Both the position numbers and the translations under genes were made by a program. From Thermoanaerobaculia bacterium (lineage in GTDB: Bacteria; Acidobacteriota; Thermoanaerobaculia; Multivoradales; Multivoraceae), in the NCBI GenBank assembly GCA_022824725.1, contig JAJDZH010000018.1, positions 321-64,320 on the forward strand: 64,000 bases of DNA, in the 5' to 3' direction. The notes beneath the pieces were generated by a model. That model made no database searches and was not told the DNA's origin. It saw only the letters and a list, made by a program, of their open reading frames with translations. Positions 1 to 55,666 of the stretch are shown here, piece by piece. How positions within the stretch are numbered: the stretch's first letter is position 1; each line of letters begins with the position of its first letter.

Positions 1-4
1 TGGC

Positions 5-526
5 GTGCTGCTCGTCCGCCGTGCGGGGAAAGAACTGCACTTCGACGACCTGCCGCGGCCGGAGTGGCTTTCCGGTGCGGTCGGGATCCTCGACAGCGGG
101 ACGCCCGGCCAGACGACGGGCGCCGTGGTGACGGCGGTACGTCGGCGCTACGACGAGGAGCCTGAGCGGACGGCCGCCGTGTTCGACCGAATCGAGGCGG
201 CGGTGGAGTCCTTCCGCGCGGCGCTCCAGGATGGCGGCCCGCGGGATGCCGCGTCGGCCATCGCCGAGGGTCATCGCGCTCTGGTCGAACTCGGCGTCGT
301 GCCGCCGGCGGTCGCGCGCCGGATCGCGTCGGCGGAAGCCGCCGGGGCCGCGGCGAAGATCTCCGGCGCCGGGGCCCTCGCAGGCGAGTCGGCGGGCGCC
401 TTGATCTGCATGCTCGGCGGCCGGCCGGTGGAGACGGTCGATGGCATCTCCGACCTCGAGCCCGTGAACTCGGCGATCGGCGCCGGCGGTCTCAGGTTCG
501 AGGGTCGGGCGGCCGATCGACTGTAG
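5..526 (+). CDS. GHMP-family kinase, 3' part (likely mevalonate kinase); gene begins upstream of the window
   Basis: C-terminal motif KISGAGALAGESAGALICML resembles the GHMP kinase C-terminal Gly-rich motif; sits directly upstream of the MVD-family and IPK genes. Confidence 0.5.
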   Translation: MLLVRRAGKELHFDDLPRPEWLSGAVGILDSGTPGQTTGAVVTAVRRRYDEEPERTAAVFDRIEAAVESFRAALQDGGPRDAASAIAEGHRALVELGVVPPAVARRIASAEAAGAAAKISGAGALAGESAGALICMLGGRPVETVDGISDLEPVNSAIGAGGLRFEGRAADRL

Positions 527-537
527 GCTCCGGGCCG

Positions 538-1602
538 ATGAACTCCGCGCTGGAACCGGCTCATGAGCCTGGCCCCGTGACCGCCGAGGCGCCGTCGAAC
601 ATCGCCTTCATCAAGTACTGGGGCGCCCGCGATCTCGAGGGCGACTCCGAAGGCCCCGTTCCCTTCAACCGCTCGCTGTCGATGACCCTGGACGCCTGCC
701 GGTCGATCTGTTCCGCATCGCCGCTCCCGGAAGGCAGCGACGACGAGATCCACTGGGTACAGGAGCCGGCGGGCGGCCGTTCGAGCGCGGCTGAGGAAGC
801 GCCGCCGGCCTTCGTAGAGCGCACGAAGCGCCACCTGGACCGGTTGCGGGAATGGTCGCGGCAGACGGCGGCGCCCTACGCGGGCGGATTCCGGATCGCG
901 ACGGGCAACACCTTCCCGTCGGCCGCCGGGATCGCCTCGTCGGCCTCCGGTTTCACCGCGCTGACGCTGGCCGCCTCCGCCTGCATGGGCTTCGACCTGA
1001 CGCCGCGGATGCTCTCCGCCCTGTCGCGGAGCAGCGGTTCGGGCTCGGCCGCCCGCTCCGCCTGGGGCGGCTACGTCGAGTGGCCGGACGGGGACGGCAA
1101 CGCCGCGGTTCAGATCCTGGACGAGCGGGCGTGGGAACTCTGCGACCTCGTCGCGGTCGTCGAGACGGGAGCGAAGAAGGTGTCGTCGCGGGACGGCCAC
1201 CGGCGCGCCACGAGCAGCCCGTACTTCGCACCGCGCCTGGCCGCTCTCGACGGGCGGCTGGAACGGGTGCGCTCCGCTCTCTGCGGCCGCGACTTCGAGG
1301 CGCTCGGCGACGCGGTCGAGGAGGAGGGGATCGACCTGCACCTCATCGCGATGTCCTCGCGGCCGCCGGTCTACTACTGGTCGCCGGGGACGATCGAGGT
1401 GCTGGCCGCGGTCCGCGAGCTGCGCGCGGACGGCGTGGCCGCCTACGCCACGATGGACGCCGGCGCGAACGTCCATGTGATCTGCCAGCCGGCGGACGCC
1501 GGGCAGGTGGAGGAACGGCTCGTGGCTCTCGGCAGCGTCGAGCGGGTGCTGCGCGACCGCACCGGGGGTCCGCCGGTGTGGCGTGGCGGAGCCGAGCTTT
1601 GA
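538..1602 (+). CDS. mevalonate diphosphate decarboxylase family protein (possibly phosphomevalonate decarboxylase)
   Basis: NIAFIKYWGARD and AGIASSASGFTALTLAA motifs are typical of the MVD/GHMP family; ATG at 538 follows the upstream stop. Confidence 0.8.
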   Translation: MNSALEPAHEPGPVTAEAPSNIAFIKYWGARDLEGDSEGPVPFNRSLSMTLDACRSICSASPLPEGSDDEIHWVQEPAGGRSSAAEEAPPAFVERTKRHLDRLREWSRQTAAPYAGGFRIATGNTFPSAAGIASSASGFTALTLAASACMGFDLTPRMLSALSRSSGSGSAARSAWGGYVEWPDGDGNAAVQILDERAWELCDLVAVVETGAKKVSSRDGHRRATSSPYFAPRLAALDGRLERVRSALCGRDFEALGDAVEEEGIDLHLIAMSSRPPVYYWSPGTIEVLAAVRELRADGVAAYATMDAGANVHVICQPADAGQVEERLVALGSVERVLRDRTGGPPVWRGGAEL

Positions 1603-2477
1603 GTGCGGCCGCGGCCGCGAACGCCTCGAAGTCGCGGTTGAGCGTCACCCTGGTCAAGCTTGGCGGCAGCCTGATCACGGACAAGACGGAACCGCGCAAC
1701 GTCGCGAAGGAACACCTGCGGCGGCTGGCGGCCGAAATCGCGGCCGGGTGGTCGGGGGGCGGCCTCGTGATCGGTCACGGCAGCGGTTCCTTCGGACACC
1801 CGGAGGCCCGCGCCGCCGGTCTGGCGGGAGGCGCCGGCGGCCGGCGGCTGGGCTCGGCGGCGGACCGGATGGGCATCGCGCGCACGCAGGCCGCGGCCCA
1901 GGAACTCCATCGCCAGGTCGTTTCCCGCCTGATCGCGGCCGGCGTGCCGGCGTACTCGCAACTGCCGTCCGCGTTCCTGGTGGCGGACGATGGAGAGCCC
2001 GGCGGTCCGCCGCCCGAACCGCTGGCGGCAGCGCTGCGACTCGGCCTGGTGCCGGTCACGATGGGCGACGTCGTCGTGGACCGGGCGCGCGGGGCCTCGA
2101 TCGCGTCGACGGAGACGGTGTTCGAGTTCCTTGCCCGCACCCTCGTTCCGCTCGGCATCGCAGTGTCTCGGGCGGTGTGGCTCGGTGTGACGGCGGGCGT
2201 ACTGGACGACGCCGGCCGGCTCGTTCCCCGCATCGACGCGGCGAACATCGGGGCCGCGTCGGAGGCCGCCGGCGGCTCCCCGGCGGTCGATGTCACCGGC
2301 GGCATGGAGCACCGCCTGGCGACCGCCTGGAGGCTGGCCCGGCGCGGCGTCGAATCGCTCATCATCGACGGGCGCCGCCCCGGTCTTCTCGAGTCGGTGC
2401 TCCGGTGCCCGGGCGGCGAGGCGGAGAGCGCCGGTACACTCGTGAGCCCGAGCGGGGTGGAGAATGCGCGCGAGTAG
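1599..2477 (+). CDS. isopentenyl phosphate kinase (amino-acid-kinase fold)
   Basis: N-terminus VTLVKLGGSLITDK...GLVIGHGSGSFGH is typical of IPK; a TTG start at 1599 overlaps the MVD stop (TTGA). Confidence 0.7.
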   Translation: MSAAAAANASKSRLSVTLVKLGGSLITDKTEPRNVAKEHLRRLAAEIAAGWSGGGLVIGHGSGSFGHPEARAAGLAGGAGGRRLGSAADRMGIARTQAAAQELHRQVVSRLIAAGVPAYSQLPSAFLVADDGEPGGPPPEPLAAALRLGLVPVTMGDVVVDRARGASIASTETVFEFLARTLVPLGIAVSRAVWLGVTAGVLDDAGRLVPRIDAANIGAASEAAGGSPAVDVTGGMEHRLATAWRLARRGVESLIIDGRRPGLLESVLRCPGGEAESAGTLVSPSGVENARE

Positions 2478-3156
2478 CACCGTCGAGGACTACCTGAAGT
2501 GCATCTTCCTGGCGGAGCACGAGTTTCTGGCGGGACAGGAGGCCCGGCTCGAGGGCCCGCAGCTCGTGCCGATGGGCCGGATCGCGGCGCGGCTCAAGGT
2601 GGCGCCCGCCTCGGTCACGGCGATGATGAAGACGCTGGCCGACTCCGGACTGGTCTCCTACGAACCGTACAGCGGCGTCCGGCTCCTGCCGGCGGGCCGC
2701 AAGCTGGCGACTCACGTACTCAGGCGGCATCGGCTGATCGAGCTCTTCCTGGTCAACGTGATGGGCTTCGACTGGAGTGAGGTCCACTCGGAGGCCGAAC
2801 TGCTCGAGCACTCCGTTTCCGGCCGGATGATCGAACGGATGGACGAGATGCTCGGCCATCCCTCGGTGGATCCCCACGGCGATCCGATTCCGAGCGCGGA
2901 CGGTCACATCGAGCTTGTGGATCATCCGAGCCTCCTGAAGTGCACCCTGAACCAGATCGTCGAGGTGGTCCGGGTGACGGACCAGAACGCCGAGTTCCTG
3001 CGCTTCGCGGAGCGCGAAGGGCTGGCGCCGGGCAGCCAGGTCGAGGTGGCGGCGCGCGACGAGACCGCCGGCAGCGTTGCGGTGGTCTCGGGCGCGCGCG
3101 AGTTCAGCCTGGGCTTTCCGGCGGCGTCGAAGGTGCTGGTGCGGGAAGCGAACTAG
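2464..3156 (+). CDS. DtxR/MntR-family metal-dependent transcriptional repressor with C-terminal FeoA/SH3-like domain
   Basis: Helix-turn-helix N-terminus DYLKCIFLAEHEF, metal-site residues and a C-terminal FeoA-like domain; overlaps the IPK 3' end by 14 nt. Confidence 0.8.
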   Translation: MRASSTVEDYLKCIFLAEHEFLAGQEARLEGPQLVPMGRIAARLKVAPASVTAMMKTLADSGLVSYEPYSGVRLLPAGRKLATHVLRRHRLIELFLVNVMGFDWSEVHSEAELLEHSVSGRMIERMDEMLGHPSVDPHGDPIPSADGHIELVDHPSLLKCTLNQIVEVVRVTDQNAEFLRFAEREGLAPGSQVEVAARDETAGSVAVVSGAREFSLGFPAASKVLVREAN

Positions 3157-3222
3157 CGGCAGCCGCTGGTCGTGCCGGCCTGCGGCCGGCGCCCTGTCTT
3201 CCACGGGTCAGAAGACCCGTGG

Positions 3223-3723
3223 TCACACGGCGGCGACGACGAAGAGCGGCTGGCCGCCGTCGACGGTCTGGCCGACCTCGACCAGGAGCTGCTCGAGCCG
3301 CCCGTCGATCTCCGACTGGATCTCGTTCTCCATTTTCATCGCCTCGAGCACGACGACGCCCTGCCCCGACGTCACCTCGTCGCCCTCGGCCGCGAGCACG
3401 GCCACCACACGGCCGGGCATGTAGGCGGTTGCCTCGAAGGTGTCCCCTGCTCCCTGCTGCGTCGCCTCGCCGAGAGCCCGGGAGCGGGGGTCGATCACCT
3501 TCAGTTCGAGACCGTCGACGTCGTAGAGGCCGTTGCCCAGCGAGCGGACGCTCTGCGTCGCCTGGCGTCCGTTGACGATCACGCTCAGAACGTCCGGCCG
3601 TCCCAGGGTCACGGCGTCCACCCGGTACTCGCGGTCGTCGACGGCGACGGTCCAGTGGCCGTTGGCCTCGGCGCGGACCTCGACGCGGACCTCGTCCGCG
3701 GCGCGGGCGACGATCAGTTCCAC
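3223..3723 (-). CDS. biotin carboxyl carrier protein / biotinyl-domain protein
   Basis: C-terminal biotinylation motif EAMKMENEI; overlaps the biotin carboxylase 3' end. Confidence 0.7.
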   Translation of the reverse strand: MELIVARAADEVRVEVRAEANGHWTVAVDDREYRVDAVTLGRPDVLSVIVNGRQATQSVRSLGNGLYDVDGLELKVIDPRSRALGEATQQGAGDTFEATAYMPGRVVAVLAAEGDEVTSGQGVVVLEAMKMENEIQSEIDGRLEQLLVEVGQTVDGGQPLFVVAAV

Positions 3724-5258
3724 GTCGTGCCTCTCCGGGCGTCGCGGCGCGCCGCGAGGCGCCAGTTCGACCGCGGGGCGCCGCCGCCGGCCGCGGCCGC
3801 GGTTCCGTTCGTCTCGGCCCGCTTGAGGTGGGCGAGGACGGCGGCGAGGACGGGAAGGTCGGCCTCCAGGGCGTCGTCTTCCGGCGCGGCCGGTCGCAAC
3901 TCGCCGTTCTCGAGCTTGCGATCGAGCATCGAGATGTCCATGTTGCCCGTCGTGAAGTCCTCGTCCTCGAGCAGTTGCTCGAAGAGGGGCAGGTTGGTGC
4001 GGATGCCCTCGACCCGGGTTTCGGCGAGCGCCCGCCTGAGGCGGGCCAGAGCGTCGTTCCGGTCGCTCCCCCAGACGATCAGCTTGGCCAGCATCGGGTC
4101 GTAGTGGATCGTGACCTCGGCGCCCTCGTACACGCCGCAGTCATTCCGGACACCGGGACCCTCCGGCAGTTGGAGCAGTTCGATCCGGCCGGGCGAAGGA
4201 GCGAAGTTGCGGAACGGATCCTCCGCGTACAGGCGGACCTCGACCGCGTGCCCCCGGGGCTCCAGGCCGTTCTCCAGCGCTTCCGGCAGCGGTTCGCCGG
4301 CCGCGATGTCGAGCTGGGCGGCGACGATGTCGATGCCGGTGACCAGCTCGGTCACCGGATGCTCGACCTGGATTCTCGTGTTCATCTCCAGGAAGTAGAA
4401 CTCTCCCCCGGGATCGAGCAGGAACTCCACCGTGCCCGCGCCGACGTAGTTCACGGCGGCCGCGGCGCGGACCGCCGCTTCGCCCATGCGGCGGCGAAGA
4501 TCCGCGTCGACGGCGGGCGACGGCGCCTCTTCGACGACCTTCTGGTGCCTTCGTTGCAGGGAGCACTCCCGTTCGCCGAGGGAGACGATTCGGCCGTGGC
4601 GGTCGCCGAGTACCTGGATCTCGACGTGGCGGGGCCGCTCGACGAAGCGTTCGACGTAGACGGAGGCGTCGTTGAAGCTGGCGCCTGCCTCCGAGGTCGC
4701 GCCCCGGAACGCCGCTTCCAGTTCGCTCTCCTCGCGCACCAACCGCATCCCCTTGCCGCCGCCGCCGGCGGAAGCCTTGAGCATGACCGGATAGCCGACC
4801 TCGCCAGCCGCCTCGCGCGCCGCTTCGGCGGAGGCCAGGGGGTCGGTGCCCCCCGGAACGATGGGTACGCCGGCGGCGGTCATCAGGCGCCGGCTCTCGA
4901 TCTTCGAACCCATCGCGGCGATCGCCGCGGAGGGCGGCCCGATGAAGGCAATGCCGCGTTCCTCGCAGAGGCGCGCGAACCCGGCGTTCTCGGACAGGAA
5001 GCCGTAGCCGGGGTGGATCGCGTCGGCGCCGACGGCCGCGGCCAGGTCGACGATTCTCCCGGCCTGAAGGTAGCTCTCGATCGAGGGCGCGGGGCCGATG
5101 CAGTGGGCCTCGTCCGCCATCTGCACGGCCAGACCGTCGCGGTCCGCCTCCGAGTAGACGGCGACCGAGACGATGCCGCGTTCGCGGAGCGCCCGGATCA
5201 CCCGCACCGCGATCTCGCCGCGGTTCGCGACGACTACCTTCTTCAGGCCGTTCTTCAT
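3714..5258 (-). CDS. accC: biotin carboxylase (acetyl/acyl-CoA carboxylase BC subunit) with C-terminal extension
   Basis: KVVVANRGEIAVRVIRA, ATP-grasp motifs GGGGKGMR and EMNTRIQVEHPVTE; about 60 extra aa at the C-terminus. Confidence 0.9.
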   Translation of the reverse strand: MKNGLKKVVVANRGEIAVRVIRALRERGIVSVAVYSEADRDGLAVQMADEAHCIGPAPSIESYLQAGRIVDLAAAVGADAIHPGYGFLSENAGFARLCEERGIAFIGPPSAAIAAMGSKIESRRLMTAAGVPIVPGGTDPLASAEAAREAAGEVGYPVMLKASAGGGGKGMRLVREESELEAAFRGATSEAGASFNDASVYVERFVERPRHVEIQVLGDRHGRIVSLGERECSLQRRHQKVVEEAPSPAVDADLRRRMGEAAVRAAAAVNYVGAGTVEFLLDPGGEFYFLEMNTRIQVEHPVTELVTGIDIVAAQLDIAAGEPLPEALENGLEPRGHAVEVRLYAEDPFRNFAPSPGRIELLQLPEGPGVRNDCGVYEGAEVTIHYDPMLAKLIVWGSDRNDALARLRRALAETRVEGIRTNLPLFEQLLEDEDFTTGNMDISMLDRKLENGELRPAAPEDDALEADLPVLAAVLAHLKRAETNGTAAAAGGGAPRSNWRLAARRDARRGTTWN

Positions 5259-5309
5259 GCCAGGGGGCGCATCCTAGCCGGAGGGACGACGCCGCTGCGC
5301 GGGGCGATC

Positions 5310-5345
5310 TTCCTCGGAAGCCGGCGGGGGCGCCGGCGCACCCAG
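5310..5345. repeat. solo copy of the REP/MITE core (GGGGCGCCGGCGCACCCAGTG) in a divergent intergenic region
   Basis: Matches the palindromic core seen at 11 other loci in this window. Confidence 0.6.
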
Positions 5346-5476
5346 TGAGGGTGACGCCGTCGCGCGATAATGTCCGAGCAGGCCAACGGAAGAGGAGGAC
5401 CTTTATGCAATGCAGTCTCGAACCGGGAGCTTCGCCTGACGGCAAGTGGGGTCCCCTGGTCACCAGGAAGTCCCTG

Positions 5477-6766
5477 ATGCGATCCGGCCTGGCCGCGCTG
5501 CTCGTCGCACCCTTCACCGCGTCGGCGCTGGTCGCGGGCCGCGGCCAGGAATCCGGAGGCTCGGAGGCCGAGTCGTCGGACCGGGCGGAAGGTCGGGGCG
5601 CCACGGACGAAGAGATCGTTCTCGGGGTGTCCGCCGCCTTCTCGGGGCCGTCCCGGGGGCTCGGCACGGAGCTCTACCGTGGCGCCATGGCGTACTTCAA
5701 CCACGTGAACGAGAACGGCGGCATCGAAGGCCGCAGGGTCAGCCTGAGGTTGTATGACGACGGCTATCAGCCCGATCCCTGCGTCCAGAACACGATGAGG
5801 CTGATGCTGGAGGACAAGGTGTTCTCCCTCTTCGGCTACGTCGGGACGCCGACCGTCACCCGGGTGCTCCCGATCCTGAAGAAGTTCCAGGACGAGAAGA
5901 TCTTCCTGTTCTTCCCGTTCACCGGCGCCCAGCCGCAACGGGAGCCGCCCTATGGCGAGTTCGCGTTCAACCTGCGAGCCTCCTACAACCAGGAGACGGC
6001 GGGGTTGGTCGACAATCTCGTGCAGGTCGGCAGGCGGCGAATCGCCGTCTTCTACCAGATCGACGCCTACGGCCGGAGCGGCTGGGCCGGGGTCAGGGCG
6101 GCACTGGACAAGCACGGCGAGCGGCTGGCGGGCGAGGCGACCTACAGCCGCGGCGAGAAGTTCACCGGCAGCATGAGAAAGCAGGTCGAGATCCTGCAGG
6201 GGGTCGCACCGGACGCCGTCATCTGCATCGGCGCGTACGCCGCCTGCGCCGCGTTCGCGCGGGACGCCGTCGATCTCGGGCTCGACGTGCCGATCGCCAA
6301 CCTCTCCTTCGTCGGCAGCGAGAACCTCCTGAAGCTCCTGACCGAGGGGCAGGACGACGCCGAGAGGTACACCCGGCAGTTGATCAACTCCCAGGTCGTC
6401 CCCAGCTACGAGGACACGTCGATCCCGGCGGTCCAGGAGTATCGGGACCTGATGGCGCGCTACGACCCCCAGGTGCCGGCCGACCTGGTGGAGGAGGAGT
6501 ACGCGCCGTTCCCGCACAGCTTCGGCAGCCTCGAGGGATTCCTGAACGCCAAGCTGATGGGGGAGATTCTGCGGCGCCTGGGGCCGAACCCGGACCGGGC
6601 GGGGCTGGAGGAGGCGGTGTTCTCGATCGAGGACTTCGATCTCGGGATCAGCGAACGGGTGTCGTTCGGCCCCGACCGGCGCCAGGGACTCCAGAGCGTC
6701 TACCACACCGTCGTCGAGGAGGGCCGGTTCGTTCCGCTCGACGACTGGGGCGTCAGGTTCGGCTGA
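5477..6766 (+). CDS. periplasmic binding protein, type I (Leu/Ile/Val-binding LivJ-like), orphan
   Basis: Signal peptide MRSGLAALLVAPFTASALVAG; typical PBP1 body (GVSAAFSGPSRGLG...YDDGYQPD); no ABC permease or ATPase genes adjacent. Confidence 0.75.
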   Translation: MRSGLAALLVAPFTASALVAGRGQESGGSEAESSDRAEGRGATDEEIVLGVSAAFSGPSRGLGTELYRGAMAYFNHVNENGGIEGRRVSLRLYDDGYQPDPCVQNTMRLMLEDKVFSLFGYVGTPTVTRVLPILKKFQDEKIFLFFPFTGAQPQREPPYGEFAFNLRASYNQETAGLVDNLVQVGRRRIAVFYQIDAYGRSGWAGVRAALDKHGERLAGEATYSRGEKFTGSMRKQVEILQGVAPDAVICIGAYAACAAFARDAVDLGLDVPIANLSFVGSENLLKLLTEGQDDAERYTRQLINSQVVPSYEDTSIPAVQEYRDLMARYDPQVPADLVEEEYAPFPHSFGSLEGFLNAKLMGEILRRLGPNPDRAGLEEAVFSIEDFDLGISERVSFGPDRRQGLQSVYHTVVEEGRFVPLDDWGVRFG

Positions 6767-6767
6767 T

Positions 6768-7508
6768 ATGAGAATCCGCAGGCTGTTCAAGTGGACGAGG
6801 TTCGGCATCTTCGCCGTCTTCGGCCTGATCGTCCTGTCGACCTCCATTCTCTGCATCTACACCGTCGACACGGAGTTGTCGGCGGAGTACGAGGTCAACA
6901 CCCAGAACATCGCCAAGACGATCGCGGACTCGAGCGCCGGCATTCTCCTGAACCAGAATCTCGCGACGCTGCAGTCGCTGGTCGACCAGTTTCTCGAGGT
7001 CCAGGGCATCCGGTACATCTACATCACCAGCGAGACGGGCGAGTTTCTGGCGCACACCTTCGTGCCCGGCATCCCCGAGGAGATTCTGGAGAGCGAACAC
7101 AGCAACACGGCGCCGGTTGAACGGAGCCTGCCGGGGATGGGCGACTTCATCGAGGTCGGCAGCCCGATCCTGGCCGGCGTCGCCGGGACCGTCCACGTCG
7201 GCATGGACCTCGACGTCGTCGCCCTCAAGATCCAGCGGGCGATCGGCCAGCAGGTCTACCTGATCAGCGTCATGCTCCTCATCGCCGTGCTGGCCTCGAT
7301 CTGGTTCGTCAATCTGGCCGCGAAGCCGCTGGGCGAACTGCTCGCCTACGCGGTGGAACTGGCGAAGGACGGAGAGAACGACGAGCTCGGCGAGCGGGAA
7401 CTCCTGGCGCGCGACGACGAGGTGGGCCACCTGGCGCGGCTGTTCCTTCACGTGTCGCGCCAGGGCGGCGGCCGGGGTCTGCCGGCGAACACGTCCGGCA
7501 CGGAGTAG
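6768..7508 (+). CDS. membrane sensor-domain protein (TM, Cache-like periplasmic domain, TM, partial HAMP) lacking an output domain
   Basis: Two hydrophobic segments flank a ~150 aa periplasmic domain; the HAMP-like AKPLGELL...DDEVGHLARLF segment ends in a stop; GC lower than the surroundings. Confidence 0.55.
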   Translation: MRIRRLFKWTRFGIFAVFGLIVLSTSILCIYTVDTELSAEYEVNTQNIAKTIADSSAGILLNQNLATLQSLVDQFLEVQGIRYIYITSETGEFLAHTFVPGIPEEILESEHSNTAPVERSLPGMGDFIEVGSPILAGVAGTVHVGMDLDVVALKIQRAIGQQVYLISVMLLIAVLASIWFVNLAAKPLGELLAYAVELAKDGENDELGERELLARDDEVGHLARLFLHVSRQGGGRGLPANTSGTE

Positions 7509-7515
7509 CGCGGCG

Positions 7516-8829
7516 GTGCGGGTACCGAGAGTCGTCATCGCGCTGCTCTGCACGACGCTCCAGTTGTGCTTCGGCACCGTCTACGCCTGGAGCTTCTTCC
7601 AGACGATGCTGGTCCGGCAGGCGGGCTGGACCTTCTCGCAGACGGCCTGGGCGTTCAGCATCACGATCTTCACACTGGGCGTGTCGGCGGCCTGGGCCGG
7701 GCAGGTGCTGCCGCGGCTGGGACCCAGGAAGCTTGCCCTGATCGGCAGCATCCTGTTCTCGGGCGGCTACCTGGTCGCGGCAGCCGCCCTCCGGCTGGAC
7801 ATGCTGCCGCTGTTCTACATCGGCTATGGCGTGATCGGCGGCGCCGGCATCGGACTGGGCTACGTGACGCCGGTCGCGACGGTCGCCAAGTGGTTCCCGG
7901 ACCACAAGGGACTGGTCACCGGGATCGTCGTCATGGGCTTCGGCGTCGGCGCCTTCCTGCTCAGCAAGGGACTCGCGCCCTTGCTGGTGCTGCGCACGGG
8001 CGAGGACCTGTCCGAGGTGTTCCTCTGGCTCGGCATCACGTTCGCCTGCCTCCTGATCCCCTGCAGCTTGCTGCTGAGCGATCCGCCGGTTCCCTCGGAT
8101 CTGGTGAAGTCCGCCGCCGGGACCGCCGCGGAGACGGCGCCCGCGGAAGACGACACGGCGGTCAGGACCTACCTCGGTTCCCAGCAGTTCGTGTTCATGT
8201 GGATCGTCTTCTTCTTCAACATCGCGGCCGGCATCACGGTGATCAGCTTCCAGTCGGAGCTGCTCCAGGAGGTCTGGGGCCTCTCCGACCCCACGCTCGA
8301 GCCGGCGACCCTGGCGGAGTACGGGGCCACGCTGATCGCCGTCAGTTCGCTGTGCAACGGCGTGGGGAGGCTGTTCTGGGGCCTGCTGTCGGACCGCATC
8401 GGCCGGGTGAAGGTGTTCCGGATCCTGCTCGCGAGCCAGATGGTCGTGTTCGGCGTGCTGATGACCGAGACGAATCCGTGGATCTTCTCGATCCTCGTCT
8501 GCTACGTGCTGCTCTGCTTCGGCGGCGGGTTCGCCACCATGCCGCCGTTCGTCCTGGACGTGTTCGGTTCGCGAAAGATGTCCTCGATCTACGGCGCCGT
8601 GCTCACCGCGTGGGCGGCCGCCGGAATCGTCGGTCCCGTCTACCTGGGCTACCTCAAGGACGGCTACCCCGACCGCGCGGTCATGTACTGCTTCCTGGTC
8701 GGGATCCTCATGCTGGGGGGCGGTTTCGTCTTCTCCTACCTGCTGACCGACGACCGGATGCGCCTGGGGCGGCCGACGCTCGAGGGAACCCTCCGCGAGT
8801 TCGGGATCCCCGTTTCGGGCCGGGGCTGA
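7516..8829 (+). CDS. MFS transporter, oxalate/formate antiporter (OFA) family-like
   Basis: 12-TM profile; N-terminal GTVYAWSFF motif is typical of the OFA family. Confidence 0.75.
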   Translation: MRVPRVVIALLCTTLQLCFGTVYAWSFFQTMLVRQAGWTFSQTAWAFSITIFTLGVSAAWAGQVLPRLGPRKLALIGSILFSGGYLVAAAALRLDMLPLFYIGYGVIGGAGIGLGYVTPVATVAKWFPDHKGLVTGIVVMGFGVGAFLLSKGLAPLLVLRTGEDLSEVFLWLGITFACLLIPCSLLLSDPPVPSDLVKSAAGTAAETAPAEDDTAVRTYLGSQQFVFMWIVFFFNIAAGITVISFQSELLQEVWGLSDPTLEPATLAEYGATLIAVSSLCNGVGRLFWGLLSDRIGRVKVFRILLASQMVVFGVLMTETNPWIFSILVCYVLLCFGGGFATMPPFVLDVFGSRKMSSIYGAVLTAWAAAGIVGPVYLGYLKDGYPDRAVMYCFLVGILMLGGGFVFSYLLTDDRMRLGRPTLEGTLREFGIPVSGRG

Positions 8830-8836
8830 CCGCTTC

Positions 8837-9721
8837 GTGCCGCTCTTCAGGTCGCTGCGTCCGGCGCAGTGGAGCAAGAACGTGTTCGTTCTTGCGCCGG
8901 CGACGTTCGCCGGCAGCTTGCTCGACCGCGGCACGATGGAGGCTTCGGCGGTGGCCTTCGGCGCGTTCTGCGCCGCGGCCAGCGCCGTCTACCTGTTCAA
9001 CGACCTGCGCGACCGCGAGCAGGACCGCCGCCATCCCCGGAAGCGGTTGCGGCCGGTGGCGTCCGGCGCCCTGGGCACGGCGCCGGCCGCGGTGGCGTGC
9101 GCCGCGCTGGCCGCCACCGCGCTGATCGCGGCCTGGGCGCTCAACCGGGAGACCGCGCTTCTGGTTGGCCTCTACCTGCTGGCGAACCTGCTCTACAGCC
9201 TCTGGCTGAAGGAGATCGTGATCGTCGACGTGATGGTGCTCGCGAGCGGTTACGTCATCCGCGTGGTGGTGGGAGCGGCCGCGGTCGGGGTCACGGTGTC
9301 CGCCTGGCTGCTGCTCTGCACGGTCTTCCTGTCGCTGTTTCTGGGCTTCTCCAAGCGCCGCCACGAACTCGTGCTGCTTCCGGCCGACGCCGGCGAGCAG
9401 CGGGCGGTTCTCGATCACTACAGCCCGACGTTCCTGGACCAGATGATGAACGTCGTGACGGCGTCGACCCTGCTGTCCTACGCCCTCTACACGACGGCCG
9501 ACGAGACGGTCGTGCGCTTCGGCGACTACGGCCTGGTCTGGACGGTGCCGTTCGTGCTCTTCGGCATCTTCCGCTACCTGTACCTGATCCACAAGGCCGA
9601 GAATCCGAAGCAACGCAATCCGACGGAGCTACTCCTGTACGACGTTCCCTTCCTGGTGAACGTGGGGCTCTACGCCCTGGCCGTCTTCGTGATCGTCTAT
9701 CTGGCTGGGCCGGCGCAGTAG
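8837..9721 (+). CDS. UbiA-family prenyltransferase, decaprenyl-phosphate phosphoribosyltransferase (DPPR synthase)-like
   Basis: RPAQWSKN and NDLRDREQDRRHPRKRLRPVASG motifs resemble those of mycobacterial Rv3806c-type enzymes. Confidence 0.7.
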   Translation: MPLFRSLRPAQWSKNVFVLAPATFAGSLLDRGTMEASAVAFGAFCAAASAVYLFNDLRDREQDRRHPRKRLRPVASGALGTAPAAVACAALAATALIAAWALNRETALLVGLYLLANLLYSLWLKEIVIVDVMVLASGYVIRVVVGAAAVGVTVSAWLLLCTVFLSLFLGFSKRRHELVLLPADAGEQRAVLDHYSPTFLDQMMNVVTASTLLSYALYTTADETVVRFGDYGLVWTVPFVLFGIFRYLYLIHKAENPKQRNPTELLLYDVPFLVNVGLYALAVFVIVYLAGPAQ

Positions 9722-42821: not shown

Positions 42822-44132
42822 TCAGCGCCCGAGGCCGGGCAGGTTCTTCACCAGGTCGGAGTAGATCGCGAACAGCATGATGGCGACGACCAGCGCCAAA
42901 CCGAACTGGGTGACCAGGCCCTTGATCTGGAGGGAAAGGTCGCGTCGAAGAACGCTCTCTAGCAGCAGGATGGCGAGCTGGCCGCCGTCGAGGATCGGGA
43001 TGGGCAGCAGGTTCAGGATGCAGAGATTCAGGCTGATCAGGGCCATCAGGAACACCAGGTCGCTGAAGCTCCTGCGAGCCGCCTGACCGCTGATCCGGCT
43101 GATCTCGATCGGGCCGGCCAGCGCGCTCTGCGGCGAAACGCGCCGTTCCAGCATGCCGCCCAGAAAGTCGAAGATCTCCGTCGTCGTCTCCCAGTTGATG
43201 CGGGCGCTTTCGGCGATGGCCGCGACCGGGCCGACGCGCTGATAGGAGAAGTGGCTGATCGCGATGCCGGCGCGGCCGACGCCGCCCTCTTCCTCCGGCA
43301 CGAGCCGCAAGACCAGACGATCCTCGCCACGGCCGATCTCGAGGCTCACCTCCTGGCCCGCGCGCGGCTCGACGAGCCGCCGGAAGTCGTCCGCGTTGGC
43401 GACGGGATGGCCGTCGACGGCGTAGAGCGTGTCTCCGTAGCGCAGACCCGACGCCTCGGCCGGAGTGTCTTCGAAGACCTGGCGGACCCGCGGCAGGAGG
43501 CTGGCGTAGAGCCCCGCGTCGCCCAGCTCGTAGCGCGGCATCCGGCGAGGGACGAGTACCGTGCTCAGGGCTTCGCCGTCGCGTTCGAAGTCGACCGCGA
43601 GCCGGCGTTCCGGCGACATCAGGACGGTGTTCGAAACCTCTCTCCACTCGGACACTTCCTCGCCGTCCAGACGCAGGATCACGTCGCCCGCCAGTAGCCC
43701 GGCTTCGGCCGCGGCCGAGTCGGGCGCCACGCCGCCGATCTCGCTGCTCAGGTCCCGCGGTCCCGCCAACTCCGTCCCGGCCATCAGCACCGCCGCGATC
43801 AGGACGATCGACAGCACGACGTTGGCCGCCGGACCTGCCAGGAGAACGACCATTCGCTGCCAGCGCGGCTTGGCGGTGAAGTCGCCCGCGTCGCCGGTCG
43901 GGTTCGCGGCGTCGATTCCCGAGAAGGCGACATAGCCGCCGAGCGGGATCATGGCCAGCCGGTACTCCGTGCCGCCTCGTTCGAAGCCCCAGATGCGGGA
44001 ACCGATGCCGATGGAGAAGACCCGGACCCTGATCCGGAACAGCCTCGCGGCCACGAAGTGCCCCAGTTCGTGGATGAAGATGATCACTCCGACCACGACC
44101 AGGAAGGCCAGGATGTTGCTCAGGAAGTTCAT
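42822..44132 (-). CDS. rseP: RIP metalloprotease RseP (site-2 protease) with PDZ domains
   Basis: MNFLSNILAFLVVVGVIIFIHELGHFVAARL HExxH N-terminus; C-terminal LDGG motif. Confidence 0.8.
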   Translation of the reverse strand: MNFLSNILAFLVVVGVIIFIHELGHFVAARLFRIRVRVFSIGIGSRIWGFERGGTEYRLAMIPLGGYVAFSGIDAANPTGDAGDFTAKPRWQRMVVLLAGPAANVVLSIVLIAAVLMAGTELAGPRDLSSEIGGVAPDSAAAEAGLLAGDVILRLDGEEVSEWREVSNTVLMSPERRLAVDFERDGEALSTVLVPRRMPRYELGDAGLYASLLPRVRQVFEDTPAEASGLRYGDTLYAVDGHPVANADDFRRLVEPRAGQEVSLEIGRGEDRLVLRLVPEEEGGVGRAGIAISHFSYQRVGPVAAIAESARINWETTTEIFDFLGGMLERRVSPQSALAGPIEISRISGQAARRSFSDLVFLMALISLNLCILNLLPIPILDGGQLAILLLESVLRRDLSLQIKGLVTQFGLALVVAIMLFAIYSDLVKNLPGLGR

Positions 44133-44140
44133 CGCTCGAA

Positions 44141-44198
44141 CTGGGTGCGCCGGCGCCCCCGCCGGCTTCCGGATCTGCCGCGCTAGCGACTCTAACCG
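44141..44198. repeat. REP/MITE-like element (short form) abutting the dxr stop
   Basis: AACTGGGTGCGCCGGCGCCCCCGCCGGCTTCCGGATCTGCCGCGCTAG. Confidence 0.7.
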
Positions 44199-45389
44199 CC
44201 AACCTGCACGAGGACTTCCCGGGCACGGCGGCGACCCCAGGAATCCCACTCCAGGGCCTCGTCGATCGTCGCCGGCTCCGCGCCGCCGGCCTCGCGGCCG
44301 TGACGGTCGAGTACTTCCGCCGCCGCCGGCACGATGGCGGCGAAGGACGCCGTGCCGCCCAGGAACGCCGCGACCGCCGTTTCGTTCGCCGCGTTGAGCG
44401 CCGCGGGCGCGCCGTTCCCCCGGATGAGCGCTTCGCGGGCCAGGGACGGCGCCGGGAACACCTCCGGGTCAACGCTTCGGAACCTGAGTTCGGAAGCCGC
44501 CTCGAGCAGCTCGCTCAGTCCGTTCGCGGCGCCGTCGTCGGGGAGCGGCCAGCGTTCGGGATGGGACAGGGCGTAACGGATGGGGTACTCCATGTCGTTG
44601 GCCGAGATCTGGGCGATCGAGTTGCCGTCCCGGAACTCGACGATCGAGTGGACCAGCGACTGCGGGTGGATCAGGATGTCGATCCGGGATCCCGGCACGT
44701 CGAACAGGTAGCTGGCCTCGATGAGTTCCAGTCCCTTGTTCATCAGCGTCGCGGAGTCGACGCTGATCTTGGCCCCCATGTTCCAGGTCGGATGGGCCGT
44801 CGCCTCGGCCGGAGTCACCGTGTCGAGAGTGGCCGGGTCGCGGTCCAGGAACGGGCCGCCCGAGGCGGTCAGCACGAGGCGTCTGACCTCCCGGCGCCGT
44901 CCAGCGCGCAGGGCCTGGTGGATCGCGGCGTGTTCACTGTCGACCGGCAGGATCTTCGCGCCCGAGGCTGCCGCCAGCCGGCGCAGGAGTGGGCCCGCGG
45001 CGACCATCGCCTCCTTGTTCGCGAGCGCCAGGTCGGCGCCGGCGGCCAGGGCCGCCGCGGCGGGCCTCAAGCCGGCCGAGCCGACGATCGCCGTCAGCAC
45101 CAGGTCGAGGTGGCGGTCCCCGACCGCGTCGATCAGGGCCGCTTCGCCCCAGCCGACACCCGTGCCGGGCGGCAGGTCGGCGCGCAGTCGCCCCGCCGCT
45201 GCTTCCGTTTCGACGACGATCCGCCGGGGCCGGAACTCGCGCGCCAGCTCGGCGAGCCGCGCGGGCTTCGTGCCCCTCGCCGCCAGCACGCACACCTGGA
45301 GCCTGTCCGGATGCCGGCGGGCCACGGCGAGGGCCGCCTCACCGACCGAGCCGGTGGCGCCGAGTACGGCCAGCTTTCGCGCGCTCACG
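44192..45389 (-). CDS. dxr: 1-deoxy-D-xylulose 5-phosphate reductoisomerase
   Basis: KLAVLGATGSVGE NADPH site and LANKEAMV, SEHAAIHQ motifs; GTG start. Confidence 0.85.
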
Positions 45390-46243
45390 GCAGGAGCGAC
45401 GGCGTCGCACCGGCCTGGATGGCGACGTAGAACGCCGGCGTCGCCAGCAGAACGCTGTCGAGACGGTCGAGCAGCCCGCCATGGCCGGGCAGAAGGCCCC
45501 CCGTGTCCTTGACCTGCACGGCTCGCTTGAGCATCGACTCGACCAGGTCTCCGGCCTGCCCCGCGCCGCCGCAGAGCAGCGCCACGACGGGGACGTCCGG
45601 GCCGAGCGCTTCGGGACCGCGCCAGAGCAGGACGACCGCGACCCCGGCGGCGCAACTGGCGGCCAGGCCGCTCACCGCGCCCGCGATCGTCTTCTTCGGG
45701 CTGAGCACCGGCGCCAGCGGCCGGCGTCCGAGCAGGCGGCCGCCGTAGTAGGCGCCGATGTCGCCCAGGGAGACGACGACCAGGACCCAGAGCAGGAGCA
45801 CCGGTTCGACGACGTGGAGTTTGATGGCGGCGACCAGGAACAGCCCGAGCCAGAGGGCGCCGAAGGCGAACAGAGCCGAGGCAAGAAGCCGATCGCGGAT
45901 GTCGGCGTGGCTGGCGAGTCCGACCGCGGCGGTCAGGGCGAGGATGGCGGCCGCGGCGGCGAACCAGGTGCCGGCGCCGCTCAGGCCAGCCGGCAGCGGC
46001 ACGTCGATCAGCTCGTTCGCGGTCGTGTCGGCCAGGGCCAGCACGCCGACCGCGAGCCATAGCGCCCAGCTCACGGTGCGCGATACGACGATCCTCCGCA
46101 CCAGGGTGCCGTACTCGGCCGCGGCCACGAGAATCACGAGCGTGGCCGCCACTCCGAACAGAACGGGGTCGAGGTAGAGGACCAGGGCGGCCGTCAGCGC
46201 CGCGGTCACGACGCCCGTGACAACGCGTTTCATTTGCGGGAAT
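45385..46243 (-). CDS. cdsA: phosphatidate cytidylyltransferase
   Basis: Multi-TM protein; the C-terminal PLAPVLSPKKTIAG...HGGLLDRLDS motif is diagnostic. Confidence 0.8.
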
Positions 46244-55205: not shown

Positions 55206-55282
55206 TGGTGCGCCCGAAGGGATTCGAACCCCTGACCTACGGCTCCGGAGGCCGTCGCTCTATCCAGCTGAGCTACGGGCGC
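55206..55282 (-). tRNA. tRNA-Arg (anticodon CCG)
   Basis: Reverse complement folds as GCGCCCGUAGCUCAGCUGGAUAGAGCGACGGCCUCCGGAGCCGU...GGUUCGAAUCC...CGGGCGCACCA; CCA is encoded. Confidence 0.85.
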
Positions 55283-55309
55283 GCGAACGGGACGATTTCG
55301 GAATCGGGA

Positions 55310-55386
55310 TGGGGTGGATGAGGGGACTTGAACCCCCAACCACTTGAACCACAATCAAGCGCTCTACCGGTTGAGCTACATCCACC
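55310..55386 (-). tRNA. tRNA-His (anticodon GTG), with encoded G-1
   Basis: Reverse complement G-GUGGAUGUAGCUCAACCGGUAGAGCGCUUGAUUGUGGUUCAAG...GGUUCAAGUCCCCUCAUCCACCCA. Confidence 0.8.
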
Positions 55387-55416
55387 AGACATCTTCAAAC
55401 CGAACTCTCAACGATC

Positions 55417-55493
55417 TGGCCTGCCTGGAGGGACTCGAACCCCCGACCCGCGGCTTAGAAGGCCGCCGCTCTATCCAGCTGAGCTACAGGCAG
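55417..55493 (-). tRNA. tRNA-Arg (anticodon TCT)
   Basis: Reverse complement CUGCCUGUAGCUCAGCUGGAUAGAGCGGCGGCCUUCUAAGCCGCGGGUC...GGUUCGAGUCCCUCCAGGCAGGCCA. Confidence 0.85.
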
Positions 55494-55542
55494 GCGAAAG
55501 CGACAGCGACAGGTTAGCCGAGGTCCGGGCTAGCGAGCGATA

Positions 55543-55615
55543 TCGGGGCGCCCAGATTTGAACTGAGGACCCCCTGCGCCCAAGGCAGGTGCGCTACCAG
55601 ACTGCGCCACGCCCC
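55543..55615 (-). tRNA. tRNA-Pro (anticodon TGG)
   Basis: Reverse complement CGGGGCGUGGCGCAGUCUGGUAGCGCACCUGCCUUGGGCGCAGGGGGUCCUCAGUUCAAAUCUGGGCGCCCCGA; CCA is not encoded. Confidence 0.8.
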
Positions 55616-55666
55616 GACAGGCAAGGCGGCGAATGATAGCAGCCTTGCCCTTTATGCTCTGACGGA

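Follow-up and report, generated by a model that had tools for sequence, protein, structure and literature searches.

Using comparative genomics of a 64,000-nucleotide stretch from a Thermoanaerobaculia bacterium of the phylum Acidobacteriota (GenBank assembly GCA_022824725.1, contig JAJDZH010000018.1, positions 321 to 64,320 of the forward strand; hereafter the window), we identify a mevalonate-pathway operon in which an ATP-dependent decarboxylase of the MVD family is probably a phosphomevalonate decarboxylase (PMD or MPD; EC 4.1.1.99) of the haloarchaeal and Chloroflexi-type lower mevalonate pathway. The start of the window is the distal part of this operon, which has six genes in the order idi2-hmgr-mvk-pmd-ipk-dtxR. 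We demonstrate the identities of the genes, their order and the residue pattern of the decarboxylase; the preference of the latter for mevalonate 5-phosphate is predicted from its sequence and gene context.

The window opens within the mevalonate kinase (MVK) gene, of which the last 174 codons and the stop are present on the forward strand (1..526, frame 2-526; TIGR00549, e-value 1.4e-10 on the fragment). Its start lies upstream of the window, and the apparent GTG start at position 5 is an effect of the window edge. On the same strand follow the genes for the 354-residue decarboxylase (538..1602), for a 292-residue isopentenyl phosphate kinase (IPK; 1599..2477) and for a 230-residue DtxR/MntR-family metal-dependent regulator with a C-terminal FeoA/SH3-like domain (2464..3156). 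All four lie where the initial annotation had placed them, each with profile matches far beyond chance expectation. The TTGA overlap of 4 nt that it described between the decarboxylase and ipk genes is likewise present, with the TTG start of ipk at 1599 and the TGA of the decarboxylase at 1600-1602. The gap that it gave as 12 nt between mvk and the decarboxylase gene measures 11 nt, the mvk stop ending at 526 and the decarboxylase ATG lying at 538.

Genes upstream of the window start are known by proxy only, from a 33-kb metagenome contig (L001) that carries the exact decarboxylase sequence and matches the window at 99.92% identity over 11.6 kb without gaps. This contig codes for a type-2 isopentenyl diphosphate (IPP) isomerase (idi2; TIGR02151, 388 bits, cut-off 281), a class-I, NADPH-type HMG-CoA reductase (TIGR00533, 426 bits, slightly below the cut-off of 442; 33 bits only on the class-II model) and a complete MVK of 369 residues, which scores 142.4 bits on TIGR00549 and at most 26.7 bits on models of phosphomevalonate kinase (PMK). 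A separate gene call on it picks the same TTG start for ipk. The idi2 and hmgr genes overlap by 8 nt, the gap between hmgr and mvk is 9 nt, and the ATG of dtxR at 2464 overlaps the end of ipk (stop at 2475-2477) by 14 nt, so that every gene pair of the unit is joined by an overlap or a gap of at most 14 nt. In four relatives (L002, L005, L007 and L009) hmgr and mvk are separated by an additional 0.6-2.4 kb, which in L002 (8241-8804) holds a 187-residue open reading frame (ORF) devoid of Pfam matches; this insertion is absent from the lineage of the window.

The decarboxylase contains the domains PF22700 (MVD-like_N, e-value 1.4e-33), PF18376 (MDD_C, 9e-14) and PF00288 (1e-5). Eighteen PDB sequences match it at E <= 4.5e-23, the top match being the PMD of Anaerolinea thermophila (PDB: 6N0X; e-value 7.8e-56, 193 bits), followed at a distance by the best diphosphomevalonate decarboxylase (DMD; 155 bits). 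An alignment of homologues revealed an invariant set of catalytic residues, namely S134-S137, R173 in the motif GSGSAxRS, K213 in the beta9-alpha8 loop, S217 and D307. According to the roles assigned in PMC9254496 these comprise the Ser-rich ATP loop, the substrate Arg, a Lys and the catalytic Asp (D280 of A. thermophila); the same source notes that the catalytic Asp is lost in mevalonate 3-kinases and the ATP-loop Lys in bisphosphate decarboxylases. Retention of the Asp and Arg, the Ser residues and the ATP-loop Lys identifies the protein as an ATP-dependent decarboxylase and as neither a mevalonate 3-kinase nor a bisphosphate decarboxylase.

The specificity of the enzyme was examined at two positions, which we deduced from the sequences of 6N0X and 6N0Z together with PMC11052028. 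The engineered A. thermophila PMD 6N0Z differs from the wild type by exactly an Asn-to-Lys and a His-to-Met replacement at these positions, and mutagenesis of this type turns PMD specificity into DMD specificity (PMC9254496); the corresponding motif, a conserved Lys of DMD and a conserved His of PMD, is named in PMC11052028. At the first position the window protein has Ala30, where DMDs carry the Lys that binds the beta-phosphate (Lys in the E. faecalis DMD, Asn in the A. thermophila PMD). The equivalent Lys21 of the S. epidermidis enzyme contacts the terminal phosphate of mevalonate diphosphate, and characterized or predicted PMDs have Leu, Met or Tyr there (PMC3857490, Table 4). At the second position it has the PMD-type histidine, His221 in the motif SRDGHRR, equivalent to H194 of A. 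thermophila and to a Met in DMDs. The active-site check suggested by the initial annotation thus favors a PMD at both residues. The same pattern extends to all 120 of the 120 nearest database homologues, which combine a residue other than Lys at position 30 (Ala in 111) with His at the position of His221.

The names attached to profile models are of little help here. The window decarboxylase passes TIGR01240 ("diphosphomevalonate decarboxylase") with 192.5 bits against a cut-off of 171, and scores 122 bits on NF040704, the equivalog model of haloarchaeal MvaD, below its cut-off of 475. In a control the characterized A. thermophila PMD behaved in the same way, scoring 283 bits on TIGR01240 and failing NF040704 with 197 bits; because it too receives the DMD label, the choice between DMD and PMD is not decidable by the names of hidden Markov models.

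The product of the next gene is an IPK. It matches AA_kinase (3e-20) and passes NF040647 with 131.3 bits (cut-off 120), as against 40 bits only on models of the fosfomycin kinase FomA, and its six best PDB matches are all IPKs. Each of the signature residues listed in PMC3857490 (Table 2) is present (K20, G22, G23, K29, G61, H67, P152, G156, D231, T233 and G234), including H67, which is the catalytic His of IPK (H60 in M. jannaschii).

To place these two genes in context we mapped PMK, MVK and IPK around decarboxylase homologues at 84 loci, restricting the counts to the 62 loci flanked by 2.5 kb or more in both directions and using two PMK queries validated on TIGR01220 (331 and 216 bits). A non-basic residue at position 30 is found at 52 loci, none of which (0/52) has an adjacent PMK and 38 of which have an adjacent IPK; at the 10 loci with Lys or Arg in this position, PMK is adjacent in nine and IPK in none. 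The association between residue 30 and the adjacent gene has a Fisher p of 5e-10 over the 62 loci, a figure that counts related genomes and so reflects few evolutionary events rather than 62 independent ones. No further alignment column separates PMK-linked from IPK-linked decarboxylases. Neither the operon nor the 64-kb window yielded a PMK with the validated queries (E > 1). The central proposal of the initial annotation, that the MVD homologue is a PMD working with IPK, thus holds up well, with Ala30 and His221, a PMD as the best structural match, no PMK nearby and genes for HMG-CoA reductase and IDI2 upstream. Its premise that a need for IPK arises solely if mevalonate 5-phosphate is the substrate of the decarboxylase was too strong: it is contradicted by plants and by bacteria of the candidate phyla radiation (CPR) (PMC3857490, PMC6107057), as well as by two short CPR loci in our own set (L050 and L057), where a Lys/Arg-type decarboxylase lies next to IPK.

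Decarboxylase-IPK pairs with a non-basic residue at position 30 were also recovered at L047, L048, L069, L074 and L079, in metagenome-assembled genomes (MAGs) labelled Gammaproteobacteria, Planctomycetota, Promineifilaceae and Anaerolineales, and the alternative route may extend to a wider range of uncultivated bacteria. A separate case is Pseudomonas baetica SMK4 (L039; NZ_JBPKAM010000044.1, 4513-7760), which has an hmgr-mvk-mvd cluster with a 45% identical decarboxylase of the Met/His type that groups with the acidobacterial clade; neither IPK nor PMK was found within 8 kb of it, and the cluster could be the result of horizontal transfer or contamination.

In the pathway that we propose from these genes, the class-I HMG-CoA reductase would supply mevalonate, which MVK would convert to mevalonate 5-phosphate. 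The MVD-family enzyme is predicted to phosphorylate the 3-OH of this monophosphate and to decarboxylate it to isopentenyl phosphate, from which IPK would form IPP; the type-2 isomerase would then yield dimethylallyl diphosphate (DMAPP).

Several observations weigh against this reading. Of the six sites tabulated in PMC3857490 (Table 4), just one or two discriminate. At the sites corresponding to I27, S139 and S192 of S. epidermidis, for which the PMD pattern is Arg, Ala and Thr or another polar residue, the window protein has Pro40, Ser168 and Ser217; it thus lacks the Arg of the Ile27/Arg83 position, and the two serines are DMD-like or neutral, the A. thermophila PMD itself having Ser at the S139 position. 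The equivalent of His221 also occurs in Lys-type, PMK-linked CPR enzymes, making it supportive and not diagnostic by itself. Ala at position 30 is found in no characterized PMD and, being small, might leave room for a diphosphate. Overall identity to the A. thermophila PMD is 40%, not above that to some DMDs (36-41%), and a rough neighbor-joining tree groups the Acidobacteriota clade with neither the Chloroflexota PMDs nor the Lys-type enzymes, so identity and tree together leave the choice between DMD and PMD unsettled. IPK occurs beside the classical genes in plants and CPR bacteria (PMC3857490, PMC6107057), and a PMK, especially one of a non-GHMP type, may be encoded elsewhere in the genome. 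Finally, of the two early enzymes for which the initial annotation had proposed a genome search, the reductase lies directly upstream on L001, and neither the window nor any of 44 related loci yielded an HMG-CoA synthase; a regular-expression search of the window and all loci for its active-site motif, uninformative in itself, gave no match.

The smallness and lack of charge of Ala30, together with the retention of the phosphate-contacting serines, would also fit a decarboxylase of dual or intermediate specificity that takes both mevalonate 5-phosphate and the 5-diphosphate, with IPK handling the isopentenyl phosphate produced. A precedent is the reading of Thomas et al. 2019 in PMC11052028, which ascribes dual activity to Chloroflexota enzymes with the motif "no Lys, His present". 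We regard this as rather unlikely: if the cell lacked a PMK it would have no diphosphate substrate, and with no PMK in the vicinity of any of the 52 non-Lys loci, the physiological flux would still follow the monophosphate route even if the enzyme were dual-specific.

It is unlikely, too, that the enzyme is a classical DMD supplied by a PMK encoded elsewhere, with IPK only salvaging isopentenyl phosphate as has been proposed for plants. This is what the TIGR01240 match and the names of the homologues in public records would say, and the co-occurrence of IPK with PMK and DMD in CPR bacteria and plants (PMC6107057, PMC3857490), like the Lys/Arg enzymes next to IPK at L050 and L057, gives it some substance. 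But the name is uninformative, since the A. thermophila PMD passes the same model; the beta-phosphate Lys is missing from the entire clade; and the place beside the decarboxylase that PMK occupies at nine of the 10 Lys/Arg loci is held here by IPK. A Thermoplasma-type enzyme (mevalonate 3-kinase or bisphosphomevalonate decarboxylase) or an inactive relic in a cell supplied with IPP by the methylerythritol phosphate (MEP) pathway, to which a weak NF040848 (mevalonate-3-kinase) match of 31.5 bits and the dxr gene in the same window might point, is highly improbable given the invariance of Asp307 (lost in the 3-kinases) and Lys213 (lost in the bisphosphate decarboxylases), the mevalonate 5-kinase MVK in the operon, and intact genes with native codon usage whose overlapping stop and start codons are kept across 40 species.

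The assignment as a PMD-IPK operon also gains from its conservation in relatives, the named decarboxylase homologues being from Acidobacteriota MAGs. Counting one genome per species, the best relative is a Thermoanaerobaculia MAG (96% identity), followed by Candidatus Multivorans (class Thermoanaerobaculia, order Multivoradales; 85-86%). The scan retrieved 80 species-level genomes, 40 of which encode an acidobacterial-type decarboxylase; these are labelled mostly Thermoanaerobaculia or Acidobacteriota, with two Gemmatimonadota and one Holophagales. In 38 of these 40 it is followed by ipk, the exceptions being a contig that ends 22 nt past the gene and a locus (L056) with a squalene-synthase-like gene in that place. 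The module idi2-hmgr-mvk-pmd-ipk is kept in the 40 species-level genomes, usually with two flanking genes that emerged from clustering the neighboring ORFs: one for a short-chain prenyl-diphosphate synthase upstream of idi2 (24 loci) and one for a squalene-synthase-like SQS_PSY protein downstream of ipk (26 loci; best model TIGR01559 with about 90 bits, below its cut-off). In its usual form the isoprenoid module therefore comprises seven genes. Loci flanked in this manner (L011-L038, L040, L041, L055 and L061; e.g. L061:3151-4452 and L061:9891-10871) belong to more distant Thermoanaerobaculia, and both flanking genes are missing from the window and its close relatives; most simply, the Multivorans-like clade would have lost the prenyl synthase gene at the upstream end of the module.

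At the other end of the module the regulator takes the place next to ipk. It contains PF01325 (Fe_dep_repress), PF02742 (Fe_dep_repr_C) and PF04023 (FeoA); its best NCBIfam model is MntR with 183 bits, under the cut-off of 350, and no equivalog cut-off is reached. The regulator gene directly follows ipk only in the Multivorans-like clade (loci L001-L009). The two genes overlap in the window and its 96% relative; in the other members the gap ranges from tens of nucleotides to about 190 nt as measured between the ends of tblastn matches, and amounts to 104-125 nt by gene calls for L002 and L003. Elsewhere L035 has the order ipk-sqs-dtxR, and in L031 dtxR lies about 0.9 kb beyond sqs. The claim of the initial annotation that dtxR is in the same operon thus stands for this strain, with its 14-nt overlap, and is confined to this genus-level clade, other loci having the sqs-like gene in between or no DtxR at all. 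We also observed an Acidobacteriota MAG (L056:7968-10877) with a 62% identical decarboxylase of the Ala/His type and the order mvd, sqs-like, dtxR, its locus being devoid of IPK; this is an apparent intermediate arrangement. Hence dtxR appears to be a lineage-specific neighbor that was joined to ipk upon loss of the sqs-like gene, and not ancestral to the module. In this strain it is likely to be co-transcribed with the operon; any regulatory link to isoprenoid synthesis is putative.

Downstream of dtxR the operon meets a convergent gene for a small biotin carboxyl carrier protein (BCCP), which together with a biotin carboxylase gene occupies 3223-5258 on the reverse strand and is kept in relatives. 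The 66 nt in between (3157-3222) consist of three consecutive G+C-rich hairpins reaching up to the end of the BCCP gene. RNA folding of 3150-3235 gives -54.3 kcal/mol (z = -5.25), a value equalled by none of 200 shuffled sequences. A consensus scan found no U-tract terminator at these hairpins; the stretch is likely to be the end of both convergent transcripts. Promoter and terminator consensus scans of positions 1-5600 returned nothing, as expected at 71% G+C, and neither the operon nor the region preceding idi2 on L001 matched a regulatory RNA in Rfam. An anomaly of composition from horizontal transfer was considered and rejected, as the G+C content at third codon positions is 0.87-0.90 in all four operon genes of the window, the same as in the neighboring genes and the rest of the window.

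The window also codes for a full-length 1-deoxy-D-xylulose-5-phosphate reductoisomerase, the committed enzyme of the MEP pathway (dxr, 44195..45355, reverse strand; TIGR00243, 359.4 bits over the whole model, cut-off 315.7). It lies 43 kb from the operon, flanked as is customary by cdsA (about 45388-46200) and rseP (42825-44468), both likewise on the reverse strand and in the order cdsA-dxr-rseP, and is the one gene of the MEP set seen here. A chimeric assembly as the cause of this combination was rejected, the closed 4,634,923-bp chromosome of a relative having both dxr and the mevalonate operon, about 65 kb apart and with the same local synteny; six contigs, recognized by their identical lengths, are common to the lists of decarboxylase and Dxr matches. 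Bacteria with the mevalonate pathway are generally devoid of the MEP pathway, and the reverse (PMC6107057). Because the cell has dxr, the mevalonate route probably complements the MEP pathway without replacing it, and is probably not the sole source of IPP.

Among the other genes of the window, a UbiA-family gene lies 5.7 kb downstream of the operon (8837-9721, forward strand) and matches NF008977, the model of decaprenyl-phosphate phosphoribosyltransferase, a polyprenyl-phosphate-using enzyme, with 276.6 bits (cut-off 234); L002 and L003 have a UbiA-family gene in the same position. A separate acyl-CoA carboxyltransferase gene resembling mmdA (25634-27754, forward strand; 802 bits, below cut-off) is found 20 kb away from the biotin carboxylase-BCCP pair. 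The remainder is ordinary chromosome, with gatB, ruvC, purD, purE, tonB-exbBD, uvrD, the selenocysteine synthase gene selA (20567-21922, reverse strand; SelA, 347 bits) and a cluster of four tRNA genes (55206-55617, reverse strand; Arg-CCG, His-GTG, Arg-TCT and Pro-TGG).

The route as such is known, its demonstrated carriers being haloarchaea and Chloroflexi only, and what is new is its predicted occurrence in another phylum together with the comparative data set, not a new mechanism. Chloroflexi were treated in 2018 as the sole bacterial carrier of the MPD-IPK route (PMC6107057), and later accounts (PMC9254496, 2022; PMC11052028, 2024) list it only for haloarchaea, some other archaea and Chloroflexota. 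Full-text literature searches for mevalonate terms together with Acidobacteria, Acidobacteriota or Thermoanaerobaculia turned up no account of the route in these organisms, with partial coverage that leaves room for a prior mention. The acidobacterial species, at least 40 in number, along with the gammaproteobacterial, planctomycete and CPR decarboxylase-IPK pairs, would therefore widen the known distribution of the route, and Ala would be a third residue type at the specificity position. It would also follow that automatic annotation mislabels such enzymes as diphosphomevalonate decarboxylases. The coexistence with dxr, uncommon in bacteria, raises the question of what each pathway feeds, and the compact five-gene operon, coming from a mesophile-like genome of 71% G+C, could serve as a part for pathway engineering. 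More tentatively, we suggest a possible history that would make Acidobacteriota, by way of the Thermoanaerobaculia, the second bacterial phylum to possess the haloarchaeal-type route, encoded by an ancient operon passed on vertically. The route would run parallel to the MEP pathway and would at first have been dedicated to a squalene-type product; the Multivorans-like lineage would have lost the flanking genes and gained a fusion of the operon with DtxR/MntR, placing the IPP supply under metal control.

Compared with known systems, one of the closest parallels is the route of Chloroflexota (MPD and IPK of Roseiflexus castenholzii, Dellas et al. 2013, PMC3857490; A. thermophila PMD, PDB: 6N0X and 6N0Y, Thomas et al. 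2019), with which the window shares an MVD-family enzyme that lacks the beta-phosphate Lys and keeps the PMD His, the presence of IPK, no PMK near the genes, a type-2 isomerase and the database label "diphosphomevalonate decarboxylase". It differs in that its decarboxylase is 40% identical and forms a separate clade in the rough tree, with Ala at position 30 as opposed to Asn, Leu or Val. Moreover, its genes form one tight operon, whereas Chloroflexi genes are unclustered (PMC6107057), 16 of the 19 sampled loci of the Chloroflexota clade having no IPK within 8 kb; its HMG-CoA reductase is of class I, as against class II in Chloroflexi (PMC6107057), and dxr coexists with the operon. The haloarchaeal pathway (MvaD and IPK of Haloferax volcanii, Vannice et al. 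2014) has the same predicted chemistry and gene set, with a class-I HMG-CoA reductase, MVK, PMD, IPK and IDI2, but the window enzyme falls outside the MvaD equivalog NF040704 (122 versus 475 bits) and its host is bacterial. CPR clusters of the Microgenomates, with phosphomevalonate kinase (PMVK), diphosphomevalonate decarboxylase (DPMD) and sometimes IPK (Hoshino & Gaucher 2018, PMC6107057), resemble the window in that IPK can adjoin the decarboxylase and in the His at the position of His221, but Lys or Arg persists at position 30 of their decarboxylases, which have a PMK next to them. Finally, the classical Firmicutes-type mvk-mvd-pmk(-idi2) operon, as in Clostridium rhizosphaerae (L081), likewise has a GHMP-fold MVK followed by MVD, an adjacent IDI2 and ATP-dependent decarboxylation; in the acidobacterial operon there is no PMK (TIGR01220), IPK follows the decarboxylase, and the two specificity positions show Lys-to-Ala and Met-to-His replacements.

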